Assembly: GCF_003334405.1 (NCBI RefSeq)
Contig: NZ_QOWM01000004.1
Source: Escherichia coli
GTDB taxonomy: Bacteria > Pseudomonadota > Gammaproteobacteria > Enterobacterales > Enterobacteriaceae
Length of the DNA stretch: 64,000 bases
Direction: 5' to 3' (one strand)
Shown here: one piece after another, positions 9,123-36,180 of the stretch
Layout: each line of letters starts with the position of its first letter
Numbering within the stretch: position 1 is the stretch's first letter
Position numbers and translations under genes: made by a program
The notes under the pieces: model-generated
What the model saw: only the letters and a program-made list of their open reading frames with translations
Database searches by the model: none
Told to the model about the DNA's origin: nothing

Positions 9123-9302
9123 ATGAAGTAGTTCGGGGAAATCAGTTGTCGTAATAATTAGCATGATTGGGGGCGATTCTCTGCAGCCCCCGTCACTGCT
9201 GGGGTTGAGTCATCTTGACGTCTGCTTTACGGGCGGTTAAGGTGCCTCTTGTGCGCCAGAAGTGCATATAAACGATAACATTGACCTGTAGACTTGATTA
9301 TC

Positions 9303-9851
9303 ATGGACAAATTCGACGCTAATCGCCGCAAATTGCTGGCGCTTGGTGGCGTTGCACTCGGTGCCGCCATCCTGCCGACCCCTGCGTTTGCAACACTCTC
9401 TACCCCACGCCCGCGCATTTTGACACTCAATAATCTTCATACCGGAGAGTCAATCAAAGCGGAGTTTTTCGATGGCAGAGGCTATATTCAGGAAGAATTG
9501 GCAAAACTTAACCATTTTTTCCGCGATTACCGCGCGAACAAAATAAAGTCCATCGACCCAGGATTATTCGACCAGTTGTATCGCCTGCAAGGGTTGTTAG
9601 GCACGCGCAAACCGGTGCAACTCATTTCCGGTTATCGTTCTATTGATACCAACAATGAACTACGCGCCCGCAGCCGTGGAGTAGCGAAGAAAAGCTATCA
9701 CACTAAAGGCCAGGCGATGGATTTCCATATTGAAGGTATCGCGTTAAGCAATATTCGCAAAGCCGCGTTATCTATGCGCGCAGGTGGTGTAGGATATTAT
9801 CCACGTAGTAACTTTGTGCATATTGATACCGGGCCAGCACGGCACTGGTAG
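9303..9851 (+). CDS. mepK: Peptidoglycan L,D-endopeptidase MepK (YcbK), Tat-type signal peptide
   Basis: 182-aa product from ATG 9303 (MDKFDANRRKLLALGGVALGAA...); twin-arginine motif RRKLL; track ORF starts 9 nt earlier at TTG. Confidence 0.9.
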   Translation: MDKFDANRRKLLALGGVALGAAILPTPAFATLSTPRPRILTLNNLHTGESIKAEFFDGRGYIQEELAKLNHFFRDYRANKIKSIDPGLFDQLYRLQGLLGTRKPVQLISGYRSIDTNNELRARSRGVAKKSYHTKGQAMDFHIEGIALSNIRKAALSMRAGGVGYYPRSNFVHIDTGPARHW

Positions 9852-32006: not shown

Positions 32007-32179
32007 TTATTTCTTCGAATTCCTCTTTATAAGATAATCAGGGCTTTATTTTCAGCCCTGGTTGTTTTATATTCATCGCTGTTGCTTATTTAGACATTTT
32101 GTACTTTTATTGTTGAGGTTATTAAGCGAAGCGACAATGGATTGTGTTGCTGCGGTTTTATAGGGTAGGGGAGAGGCAG

Positions 32180-32722
32180 ATGCGAATTAAACCAGACGAT
32201 AACTGGCGTTGGTATTACGATGAAGAGCACGATCGAATGATGCTCGATTTAGCCAATGGTATGCTATTTCGCTCACGTTTTGCGCGCAAGATGTTGACTC
32301 CAGATGCCTTTTCTCCCGCAGGCTTTTGCGTTGACGACGCCGCGCTCTATTTCTCTTTTGAAGAAAAGTGCCGCGATTTTAATTTATCTAAAGAACAAAA
32401 AGCCGAACTGGTGCTGAATGCACTGGTAGCAATTCGCTATCTCAAACCGCAAATGCCGAAAAGCTGGCATTTTGTTTCCCATGGTGAAATGTGGGTGCCC
32501 ATGCCGGGCGATGCGGCCTGCGTTTGGTTGAGCGATACTCACGAGCAGGTCAATTTGCTGGTCGTTGAATCTGGCGAAAATGCCGCACTATGCCTGCTGG
32601 CACAACCCTGCGTTGTTATTGCGGGTCGCGCGATGCAGTTGGGCGACGCCATTAAAATCATGAACGACAGGCTGAAACCGCAGGTTAATGTTGACAGCTT
32701 CAGCCTCGAACAGGCAGTCTAA
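32180..32722 (+). CDS. zapC: Cell division protein ZapC
   Basis: 180-aa product from ATG 32180 ([24 protein letters not shown]...); recognised as ZapC/YcbW. Confidence 0.9.
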
Positions 32723-33828
32723 CGCGCCAACTTAAGTGCAGTCTTCGGTACACAGCTACAGCAAAGAATGGTGCCATCATCGCCCATTGCTGATTTTTTC
32801 AGCGGCGTGACTTCGCCTTCTAAAAGCTGAACACGGCAACTTCCACAAATGCCCGCGCGGCAAGAATAAGGGATACGAATTCCCTGATTTTCTAATTGCT
32901 CCAGCAACACCTGTTGGTTATTTCCACGAAATGCCTGTCCCTGCCAGTCAATATCTACATTTGCGTCCGGTTGTTGCGTGATGTTGGCGGTATCATCAGC
33001 GGCAGCTGCGCCGTAAATTTTTGCCGGAGCCGTTGCCAGAATTTCCACCTCATCGCCAACGCGAATCACGCCGCTATTACGGGCAATTAAATTCTGACCA
33101 AAATCGACATCGCCGTTATCCTGGGCAGTGCGGAAAGATTGCAATGTTTTTAATGGTTCGCCTGCCGGATGTTTTTGCCCTTTTTCTGGGCTGACGGTGG
33201 TGAAAATACAGCGGCTACAAGGTTTAACCACATCAAACACCACATCACCAATGCGAATCACTTTCCAGCGATCTTCTTCCCAGGCTGACGCGCCGGAAAC
33301 CACCAGATTGGGGCGGAATTGCTCCATTTTTACACTGGCCGGACAACGTTGTTGGAGATCACGTAACGAGGCTTCGTTAGCAAGAAGGTAAGGATAGCCA
33401 TCAGCAAATGACAGAGGTACAGTGTTGTGGCGTTTCACGCGCCGGGTCATTTGTGGCCCCACCCAGCGTAATTGCACTTCGCGGGAGAAAAATCCACTTA
33501 GCCATTTGTTGATCGCGTCTGGCGCAATTCGCGCGGTAAAATGTGTGCCCCAAACTTCGGTTGGTGCGTCTTGTGTGGCGAAATCAGCAAAACGAACATA
33601 TGCGCTACTGCCATCTGGTGCGGTGAGATGCAAGCCATCATGCACAGGTGAAGGAGTAAACCGTACCATCTGGGGAAACTGGCGAGCGGTAATAAACGTA
33701 CCGTCAGGTTCCGTGATCATAAAGATGCGATCGAAGGCCAGACCACTGACATCTGCCAGAGCATGTGTAAGACCAATGCCGCGCATCGATTTAACAGGAT
33801 GAATAAAAAGCCGGATTAATGTCGCCAC
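32719..33828 (-). CDS. ycbX: MOSC-domain protein with C-terminal 2Fe-2S ferredoxin domain (YcbX)
   Basis: 369-aa ORF; C-terminal Cys cluster [11 protein letters not shown]...CCSC; 4-nt convergent overlap with zapC. Confidence 0.92.
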
Positions 33829-33864
33829 GGTGCGGTCCTCAAATGAAAATAAGCCCTCAACTTT

Positions 33865-33892
33865 ATGACATGACGCGCTTATTAGCTATAAT
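33865..33892 (+). promoter_or_regulatory. Candidate sigma70 promoter for rlmL
   Basis: -35 ATGACA, 16-bp spacer, perfect -10 TATAAT at 33887-33892, about 180 nt upstream of rlmL ATG. Confidence 0.4.
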
Positions 33893-34071
33893 GCGCAACA
33901 ATTTTCTTAGCGCCTGTCCCATTAGGCTATTTTATTTGTCAGTTTGGCCCTGGGTTATGCTCGAAATCCTCACGTACTTGTGTACGCTCCGGTTTCTCCG
34001 CGCTGTCCATGTCCAGACTGACTGCAACAATTACGCCTACTGCGGTAGGCTCTTAGAGTAAAAGTGACGAT

Positions 34072-36180
34072 ATGAATTCTCTGTTTGCCAGTACGGCCCG
34101 TGGGCTGGAAGAGCTGTTAAAAACTGAACTGGAAAACCTGGGGGCCGTTGAATGCCAGGTGGTTCAGGGTGGGGTCCATTTCAAGGGCGACACACGGCTT
34201 GTTTACCAGAGCCTGATGTGGAGCCGCCTGGCCTCGCGTATTATGTTGCCGCTGGGCGAGTGTAAGGTTTACAGCGATTTAGACCTCTATCTCGGTGTTC
34301 AGGCGATCAACTGGACAGAGATGTTTAATCCTGGCGCGACCTTCGCTGTCCACTTCAGTGGTTTGAATGACACCATCCGCAACAGTCAGTACGGCGCGAT
34401 GAAAGTGAAAGACGCGATCGTCGATGCTTTCACGCGGAAAAATCTGCCGCGTCCAAATGTTGATCGCGATGCGCCGGATATCCGCGTTAACGTCTGGCTG
34501 CATAAAGAAACCGCCAGTATCGCTCTTGATCTGAGTGGTGATGGTTTACATCTGCGTGGCTATCGCGATCGTGCTGGTATTGCGCCGATCAAAGAAACCC
34601 TGGCAGCCGCTATTGTGATGCGATCCGGCTGGCAGCCAGGAACACCGCTGCTCGATCCGATGTGTGGTTCCGGTACGTTGCTGATTGAAGCAGCGATGCT
34701 GGCGACCGATCGCGCACCAGGCTTGCACCGTGGGCGTTGGGGCTTTAGCGGCTGGGCGCAGCATGATGAAGCTATCTGGCAGGAAGTGAAAGCGGAAGCG
34801 CAAACTCGCGCCCGTAAAGGCCTGGCTGAGTATAGCTCTCATTTTTACGGTTCGGACAGCGACGCACGGGTGATTCAACGTGCACGCACTAACGCCCGTC
34901 TTGCGGGGATTGGTGAACTGATCACCTTTGAGGTGAAAGATGTCGCGCAACTGACCAATCCGCTGCCGAAAGGGCCGTACGGCACAGTGTTGAGCAACCC
35001 GCCATACGGGGAACGTCTGGACAGCGAACCGGCGCTGATTGCGCTGCATAGCCTGCTGGGTCGGATCATGAAAAACCAGTTTGGTGGCTGGAATCTCTCT
35101 TTGTTTAGTGCCTCGCCGGATCTGCTAAGCTGCTTGCAGCTGCGTGCAGACAAACAGTACAAGGCGAAAAACGGCCCGCTGGACTGCGTACAGAAAAATT
35201 ACCACGTTGCCGAAAGCACTCCAGACAGCAAACCGGCGATGGTAGCGGAAGACTACACCAACCGCCTGCGTAAGAACCTCAAAAAATTCGAGAAGTGGGC
35301 TCGCCAGGAAGGGATTGAATGTTACCGCCTGTATGACGCCGATCTGCCAGAATATAACGTTGCCGTTGACCGTTATGCCGACTGGGTGGTGGTGCAGGAG
35401 TATGCGCCGCCAAAAACTATTGATGCTCACAAAGCGCGTCAGCGTCTGTTCGATATTATCGCTGCAACCATTTCGGTACTGGGGATTGCGCCAAACAAAC
35501 TGGTGCTGAAAACCCGTGAACGCCAGAAGGGCAAAAACCAATACCAGAAACTGGGCGAGAAGGGCGAGTTTCTTGAAGTTACCGAATATAACGCTCACTT
35601 GTGGGTGAACCTGACGGATTATCTCGATACTGGTCTGTTCCTCGATCACCGCATCGCCCGTCGTATGCTCGGTCAGATGAGCAAAGGCAAAGATTTCCTC
35701 AACCTGTTCTCTTATACCGGCAGCGCCACCGTGCATGCGGGATTAGGCGGTGCACGCAGCACCACCACCGTGGATATGTCGCGTACTTATCTGGAATGGG
35801 CAGAACGCAACCTGCGTCTGAATGGCCTGACCGGGCGTGCGCATCGCCTGATTCAGGCCGATTGCCTGGCGTGGCTGCGTGAGGCAAATGAACAGTTCGA
35901 TCTGATCTTTATCGATCCGCCAACCTTCTCTAACTCAAAACGAATGGAAGATGCGTTTGATGTTCAGCGCGATCATCTGGCGCTGATGAAAGATTTGAAA
36001 CGTCTGCTGCGTGCAGGTGGGACGATCATGTTCTCGAACAACAAACGTGGCTTCCGTATGGATCTCGACGGCCTGGCAAAACTGGGACTGAAAGCACAAG
36101 AAATTACGCAAAAAACGCTCTCCCAGGATTTCGCCCGTAACCGCCAGATCCACAACTGCTGGCTGATTACCGCAGCCTGA
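34072..36180 (+). CDS. rlmL: Bifunctional 23S rRNA m2G2445/m7G2069 methyltransferase RlmKL
   Basis: 702-aa ORF with THUMP and SAM-methyltransferase motifs; recognised as RlmL/YcbY. Confidence 0.95.

Follow-up and report, generated by a model that had tools for sequence, protein, structure and literature searches.

An RSA-type MITE in the leader of the rlmL–uup operon is present in some strains of Escherichia coli and absent from others

In Escherichia coli K-12, the promoter of uup is said to have been placed upstream of ycbY by primer extension and to be moderately active and constitutive (work attributed to Reddy and Gowrishankar, J Bacteriol 2000). Described counterparts of the element that we find just downstream of this promoter include the short repeats ERIC/IRU, Correia/NEMIS of Neisseria, and YPAL/RU-2 of Yersinia, which, like it, measure about 100 to 170 bp, carry inverted repeats, are bordered by a short duplication, sit between genes or inside operons, and are transcribed as a long hairpin. 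The ERIC-, Correia-, and YPAL-type families leave a TA duplication. A second group for comparison comprises the IS5 family (IS1031-type), PIF/Harbinger, and the Tourist MITEs, whose insertions duplicate 3 bp (TWA/TNA) and whose ends are of the G(A)GCC type. Moreover, RSA, with a length of 150/151 bp and six occurrences, is one of the repeat classes in a table compiled from the GenBank record of K-12, and the title of the reference for RSA (also BEE95) describes dispersed enterobacterial intergenic elements.

The element in the rlmL leader is unrelated in sequence to ERIC, Correia, and YPAL/RU-2 and differs from them in its low copy number and its TWA duplication. Among copies sampled by core match, the core is better conserved than the ends, unlike in ERIC/Correia/YPAL-type MITEs. 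The Delihas repeat families RU-1, RU-2, and RU-3 were also considered, and their sequences differ from that of the element. With the IS5-family (IS1031-type), PIF/Harbinger, and Tourist elements it shares the type of 3-bp duplication and the G(A)GCC-type ends, but no transposase partner with the element's ends was seen, and the link to these families is by analogy. The RSA/BEE95 repeat resembles it in length (about 150 bp), in number of K-12 copies (six), and in dispersal through enterobacteria. The promoter upstream of it is the K-12 rlmL(ycbY)–uup operon promoter itself, the same object at the same position and without any difference.

Promoter and transcription starts of the rlmL–uup operon

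The DNA analyzed is a stretch of 64,000 nucleotides from E. coli, called the window here, in which pyrD, zapC, and ycbX (minus strand) are followed by rlmL and uup. This gene order is that of the E. coli K-12 sequence, and the ycbX–rlmL region is identical to that of K-12 MG1655 (locus L001); NC_000913.3 coordinates equal window positions plus 973772. The features of the promoter region are as follows.

33826–33828, minus strand: start codon GTG of ycbX (ORF list and MG1655 annotation b0947)
33852, minus strand: approximate transcription start of ycbX (SMRT-Cappable-seq, b0947, 1007624 reverse; PMC6131387)
33865–33870, plus strand: -35 hexamer ATGACA of the rlmL–uup promoter (consensus scan)
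33887–33892, plus strand: -10 hexamer TATAAT of the rlmL–uup promoter (consensus scan)
33900 (33899 in the second data set), plus strand: main rlmL–uup transcription start, an A (Cappable-seq, SMRT-Cappable-seq)
33900–34071, plus strand: 5' untranslated leader of rlmL, 172 nt (transcription start to the rlmL ATG at 34072)
33941, plus strand: minor transcription start inside the element, after TATTTT at 33928–33933 (Cappable-seq 1006936, score 2.04)
34058, plus strand: minor transcription start 3 nt past the element, after TAGGCT at 34046–34051 in the element's right end (Cappable-seq 1007053, score 2.94)
34072–36180, plus strand: rlmL (rlmKL), first gene of the rlmL–uup operon (ORF list, MG1655 annotation, SMRT-Cappable-seq)

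The sequence-only reading had proposed a near-consensus sigma-70 promoter facing rlmL and a leader of about 180 nt. A consensus scan of 33300–34600 returned one promoter-like site, ATGACA–16 bp–TATAAT on the plus strand with 11/12 matches, exactly where that reading had seen it, and no second site with at least 11/12 matching hexamer positions occurs on either strand of the 64-kb window. Because first-order Markov simulations of the window yield a mean of 0.58 such sites by chance, the hexamer match alone is weakly significant. The stronger evidence comes from two published 5'-end data sets, which agree on the start to within one nucleotide. Cappable-seq (Ettwiller et al. 2016, PMC4782308) reports a plus-strand start at U00096.2 position 1006895 with a score of 5.55, corresponding to window 33900, and SMRT-Cappable-seq (Yan et al. 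2018, PMC6131387) reports the start of b0948|b0949 (rlmL–uup) at NC_000913.3 position 1007671, corresponding to window 33899. Both lie 7 to 8 nt past TATAAT. From the mapped start, the leader measures 172 nt, close to the earlier estimate. It could be argued that the hexamers match by chance and that the real promoter lies elsewhere, given that about 0.6 sites of such quality are expected per 64 kb; with the strongest start of two independent, 5'-triphosphate-specific data sets falling 7 to 8 nt past TATAAT, we find this scarcely credible. The near-consensus sigma-70 promoter at 33865–33892 thus drives the rlmL–uup mRNA from 33899/33900.

Further plus-strand Cappable-seq starts are listed at U00096.2 positions 1006936 (score 2.04), 1007053 (2.94), and 1007246 (2.12) (PMC4782308). 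The first, in the left arm of the element at 33941, and the second, at 34058, raise the possibility that the element carries weak promoter-like ends. The offset of +777 from U00096.2 to U00096.3 was checked on the zapC promoter, where the strongest nearby start, 1005076 (score 109), falls on a G exactly 7 nt past TATATT upstream of zapC.

Operon-length SMRT-Cappable-seq reads show that rlmL and uup are co-transcribed from 33899/33900, and the operon is marked "same" as the reference annotation in that genome-wide map (PMC6131387). The promoter is therefore already known, its start site being in public maps. The Rend-seq and ROSE supplements contained no usable rlmL entry, and the literature searched contained no paper naming ycbX together with rlmL, or ycbY together with uup and promoter. 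The ycbX and rlmL starts are divergent with about 48 bp between them, so that the two promoters overlap back-to-back. A candidate -10 element for ycbX is TAAAGT, the complement of 33860–33865.

Some observations concern the neighboring genes. The strong zapC start (Cappable-seq score 109) lies at 32081 on the plus strand, 7 nt past TATATT (region 32068–32081), and the zapC start codon follows about 99 nt downstream. The zapC and ycbX coding regions are convergent, and their 3' ends overlap by 4 bp (window 32719–32722). Term-seq places plus-strand 3' ends at 32814 and 32875, antisense and 90 to 150 nt inside ycbX, which implies that the zapC 3' UTR, or an RNA begun at 32727, reaches over the 3' end of ycbX.

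A mobile insertion in the rlmL leader

Most of the mapped leader consists of a strain-variable, RSA-type MITE that went unnoticed in the first reading of the sequence. Its parts are listed below.

33907–33909: left copy of the duplicated target TTA (occupied versus empty site alignment)
33910–34052, plus strand: RSA-type MITE of 143 bp, GCGCCTGTCCC...GGTAGGCTC, an imperfect palindrome over nearly its full length (presence/absence, other copies, fold)
33910–33927, plus strand: left terminal inverted repeat GCGCCTGTCCCATTAGGC (scan, aligned copies)
34035–34052, plus strand: right terminal inverted repeat GCCTACTGCGGTAGGCTC (scan, aligned copies)
34053–34055: right copy of the duplicated target TTA (occupied versus empty site alignment)

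The two inverted repeats of the window copy, as read from the sequence, agree at 13 of 18 positions. The target TTA lies 8 to 10 nt downstream of the transcription start, the element begins 10 nt after it, and 146 of the 172 leader bases (85%) are owed to the insertion. In addition, the 9 nt GCAACAATT at 33895–33903, which span the start, are repeated exactly and directly at 34024–34032 within the element's right arm, probably by chance.

The insertion was revealed by comparing strains. A megablast search with 33700–34200 found matches in all 5426 complete E. coli genomes, full-length in 4191 and in two pieces covering 72% of the query in the remaining 1235, so that the site is occupied in about 77% and empty in about 23% of these genomes. 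When the empty-site strain AJ5 is aligned with the window, the two differ cleanly by 146 bp. At the empty site, which has a single TTA, CAATTTTCTTA is joined directly to GAGTAAAAGTGACGATATG (that is, TTCTTA to GAGTAAAAG), and at the occupied site, TTCTTA is followed by the element from GCGCCTGTCCC to GGTAGGCTC and then by TTAGAGTAAAAG. The reciprocal search with the empty allele matched 5426/5426 genomes, with the match running either uninterrupted over 181 bp or, split in two, over 327 bp; among 40 rows sampled evenly down the ranking, 8 were empty and 32 occupied, and the extra length was always 146 bp. The leader at the empty site is 26 nt long. An insertion with TTA duplication thus lengthens the leader in K-12 and in about 77% of sequenced E. 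coli. The empty or ancestral state has the 26-nt leader, and the 143-bp element has entered the TTA just past the start and duplicated it, extending the leader from 26 to 172 nt.

In Escherichia albertii the site is occupied as well; the copy there shares the unusual left end (GCGCCTGTC...) and differs by a handful of substitutions, implying that the insertion is old. The empty alleles of E. coli are thus most simply read as secondary, precise losses. Among the empty-site genomes is a strain of serotype O6:K2:H1, which we take to be associated with phylogroup B2. One listed result stands apart: for strain AHB2 (NZ_OZ547090.1; H15, locus L003), the best listed megablast match is the copy between qseE and qseG alone, in one place, which is at odds with the junction search that found the ycbX–rlmL junction in 5426/5426 genomes.

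The repeat family and its relatives

The same sequence is present elsewhere in the genome. The 172-nt segment is found at a median of 5 places in an E. coli genome, with a maximum of 8, and a 20-nt string from the center of the element occurs at 46 loci in about 20 genera of a species-representative genome collection, including Escherichia, Citrobacter, Klebsiella, Enterobacter, Pluralibacter, Atlantibacter, Buttiauxella, Pectobacterium, Dickeya, Erwinia, Pantoea, Rahnella, Serratia, and Leminorella. The aligned copies give the family consensus TWA|GAGCCTATCCCATTAGGCTATTTTACTTGCCATTTTGGCCCTGGGCAGTGCTCGAAATCCTCACGTACTACGTGTACGCTCCGGTTTCTCCGCGCTGTCCGTGTCCAAACTGGCTGCGACAATAACGCCTACTGGGATAGGCTC|TWA, with 18-bp inverted repeats GAGCCTATCCCATTAGGC and GCCTACTGGGATAGGCTC at its ends that agree at 17 of 18 positions. 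The flanking triplet, TTA or TAA, is usually equal on both sides of one copy and differs between copies, which is the behavior of a true 3-bp target duplication. The few copies with mismatched triplets could be accounted for by recombination between copies; formally, the flanks could also be read as a 2-bp duplication, TA, next to a terminal base that varies, in place of a 3-bp TWA. Copies lie in both orientations relative to neighboring genes, with no bias and often only a few bases from gene ends. One of them is located within an operon, in the sense direction between qseE (glrK) and qseG (locus L003, 2001–2142; also L013, L021, L027, and L043), and is conserved in E. coli and several other Escherichia species. 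Taken together, we find inverted repeats, a target duplication, small, non-coding, dispersed copies, and insertion polymorphism, as in a MITE.

Its size, copy number, and host range identify the element most probably as the RSA repeat of the K-12 annotation. It measures 143 bp, or 149 bp with both TTA triplets, and family copies with both triplets are mostly 150 to 151 nt long; in the 4.58-Mb, K-12-sized genome of strain ER1709, whose rlmL copy equals the window copy exactly, the family occupies six places. If so, the repeat family is already known from the first K-12 genome record. The current RefSeq record of MG1655 carries no RSA annotation at the ycbX–rlmL site, and a full-text literature search with strings of the element sequence returned nothing relevant.

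No autonomous insertion sequence with matching ends was seen in plasmids, in viral contigs, or in the loci around the copies. The family consensus matches 166 plasmid records by blast, and these matches are all MITE-sized and without IS annotation; in viral contigs, the end sequence has no match. Additional end-like matches near copies, considered as a possible parent IS, proved to be further MITE copies. A 3-bp TWA duplication points to IS5 (IS1031-type) or Harbinger-like transposases. As no partner was seen, the assignment to these transposases is a tentative one drawn from the duplication, which resembles that made by IS5/Harbinger-type enzymes.

Several individual copies deserve mention. 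An RSA copy of 91% identity is found at the same place on many large plasmids of Klebsiella, Citrobacter, and Enterobacter (H35–H65), where it overlaps an annotated RND efflux permease gene; its recurrence on large plasmids suggests that the element travels on conjugative plasmids. The copies of Pluralibacter gergoviae carry a nested, GC-rich palindromic insertion of about 60 bp in the left arm, and in a copy of Citrobacter amalonaticus unrelated sequence takes the place of the left arm or interrupts it (these atypical copies are at L005, about 9290–9480; L007, 6521–6760; and L022, about 1830–2010). About 200 bp from an RSA copy of Atlantibacter hermannii, a strong match (114 bits) to the sok antitoxin RNA (L032, 4128–4284, minus strand) marks a hok/sok-type toxin–antitoxin locus. 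Hammerhead-like CUGAUGAG strings occur in a few copies, and as they lie outside the consensus and gave no Rfam hit, we judged them coincidental.

The only Rfam match of the element points to a second, related family. The model RF02228, the Xanthomonas sRNA sX9, matches window 33972–34037 with 25.8 bits, below its gathering score of 44, and it also matches all six of the other enterobacterial copies tested (25 to 35 bits), with the core and right arm of the element aligning to the model in every copy tested. The E. coli copy is a relative, not a member. When metagenome contigs were scanned with the core pattern forced to a non-enteric variant, about 35 of the 43 matches represented a sister repeat in contigs of 64 to 67% GC (loci L050–L092, for example L051, 311–385). 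Like the element, it is about 140 bp long and has GAGC...GCTC ends, a TWA duplication, and a homologous core; the arms differ. In its copies, too, the left and right triplets usually agree with each other, with TTA and TAA alternating from copy to copy. The half of the sister repeat from apex to right end scores 81 to 96 bits on sX9, implying that the Rfam sRNA corresponds to half of a MITE: the model covers its element from the apex to the right end, and that half alone. The many copies of sX9 reported per genome fit this view.

How well the core is conserved has to be judged with the sampling in mind. The enterobacterial copies were collected by exact match to the 20-nt core, and the apparent enterobacterial trait of a core better conserved than the ends is partly an anchoring bias of that scan; a second Erwinia copy, for instance, has intact ends and a mutated core. 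The comparison across the two families is fairer evidence for core conservation than the core-anchored sample. In their joint alignment, 13 of the 30 pairs of the consensus hairpin have changed on both sides, in a compensatory manner, between the two families, and two U.G pairs do not vary, although inverted repeats co-evolving symmetrically with a transposase would also give such covariation. The enterobacterial sample behind it is anchored on the core match, and a copy with a decayed core exists.

Leader structure, coding potential, and alternative readings

The RNA of the element is predicted to fold as one rod-like hairpin on either strand (-51.8 and -52.2 kcal/mol, z of about -4.6). In the fold of a 202-nt leader, the stem begins at nucleotide 5, leaving about four unpaired 5' nucleotides, and closes just before the ribosome-binding region, which is unpaired. 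As RNA, the element would therefore be a single self-contained rod that brings the 5' end beside an unchanged ribosome-binding region. Full-length reads show that it is co-transcribed with rlmL and uup. With the predicted hairpin self-contained and the ribosome-binding region free, we infer that the element is a tolerated passenger, which would have at most modest effects on mRNA stability.

The remaining feature of the region is an open reading frame.

33819–34061, plus strand: 80-codon ATG ORF, not a gene (ORF list, relatives, transcription start maps)

This frame is present in the ORF list, and the sequence-only reading had taken it for a non-coding leader rather than a gene. This judgment and the one on the promoter hold up. 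Its ATG at 33819 lies 81 nt upstream of the mapped start, and the next upstream plus-strand start in the table is at window 32727. In addition, the frame is not conserved in relatives, as it is truncated to 36 aa in empty-site strains and interrupted by an in-frame stop at codon 43 in E. albertii, and the leader itself is mostly mobile-element sequence. Codons 33 to 80, the C-terminal 48, come from the element and the duplicated target. Past the transcription start, the frame has a single ATG, at 33957; it falls within the hairpin, and the family consensus has GTG in its place. The listed RefSeq genome records, MG1655 included, annotate no gene at the ORF. The 80-codon ORF would thus be a by-product of reading across the promoter and the element.

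Against this background, three other readings were weighed. One holds that a small protein is made from the 80-aa ORF, or from the 34 aa that begin with the ATG at 33957, and draws on the uninterrupted 80-codon ATG frame in K-12. A start codon upstream of the mapped transcript start, truncation to 36 aa where the site is empty, the stop at codon 43 in E. albertii, 48 C-terminal codons made of mobile element, the lack of annotation in the listed RefSeq records, and an internal ATG that is GTG in the consensus and buried in the hairpin make it extremely improbable. A dedicated cis-regulatory RNA (riboswitch, attenuator, or protein-binding leader) evolved for rlmL–uup is suggested by the length and structure of the 172-nt leader and by a terminator-like hairpin with a T-run at 33912–33937. 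However, the scan hit in question (33912–33927, with the T-run reaching 33937) is a small hairpin within the left inverted repeat, and although hairpin and T-run are present as in an intrinsic-terminator attenuator, the Term-seq tables (Adams et al. 2021) give no 3' end among the entries listed between 1007600 and 1007899, which include the leader, and full-length operon reads begin at the mapped start. An Rfam search at permissive thresholds found no cis-regulatory family at E < 1, with sX9 as the sole match below that value. Moreover, the same sequence sits at unrelated loci in either orientation, and 85% of the leader is missing from 1235/5426 E. coli genomes. A leader that lacks the element in about 23% of strains has not evolved as a regulator of rlmL, and with 146 of its 172 bases belonging to a strain-variable mobile insertion it is no dedicated rlmL leader; we consider this reading highly improbable.

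The element could also have been co-opted after its insertion, with the 5'-proximal hairpin altering mRNA decay or being cut by a double-strand RNase, or with the ends supplying weak additional promoters at 33941 and 34058. The stem that begins at nucleotide 5 in the fold, the two minor starts, the stable half-element RNA (sX9) given by the homologous Xanthomonas-type element, and the compensatory changes that keep the core hairpin all speak for this possibility, and ERIC repeats in Yersinia act in this way (PMC2267715). If it were true, the expression of RlmL and Uup would differ between occupied and empty strains. Nevertheless, about a quarter of strains do without the element, its copies show no orientation preference relative to genes, and the minor starts score low (2.0 to 2.9, versus 5.6 at the main start), so that we regard co-option as unlikely. 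The weak starts at 33941 and 34058 and the conserved, covarying core do leave room for some function. On a bolder reading, the element is not just a passenger in decay, and RSA and sX9 form a gammaproteobacterial superfamily whose core hairpin of about 70 nt is an RNA or single-strand module, as the compensatory changes and invariant U.G pairs suggest it could be, and which, in the rlmL leader, sets strain-specific levels of RlmL and Uup; we hold this to be quite improbable. Uup suppresses the precise excision of elements flanked by inverted repeats. If the core-module reading were true, the insertion could influence its own loss through Uup.

Overall, the evidence very probably describes a sigma-70 promoter at 33865–33892, a leader-lengthening RSA-type MITE carried as a tolerated passenger, and a spurious ORF. 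For promoter biology this carries little weight, as the start is in public transcription start maps and the repeat family most probably in the first K-12 record. Searches for a riboswitch or a small protein should leave the long rlmL leader aside. Among E. coli strains, an operon for an rRNA methyltransferase and an ABC-F protein comes with or without a clean insertion of 146 bp that lies between its promoter and its ribosome-binding site; this difference offers a ready-made natural experiment on what a hairpin-forming MITE in a 5' UTR does to expression. In addition, the finding that sX9 corresponds to half of a related mobile repeat bears on whether sX9 matches should be counted as sRNA genes.
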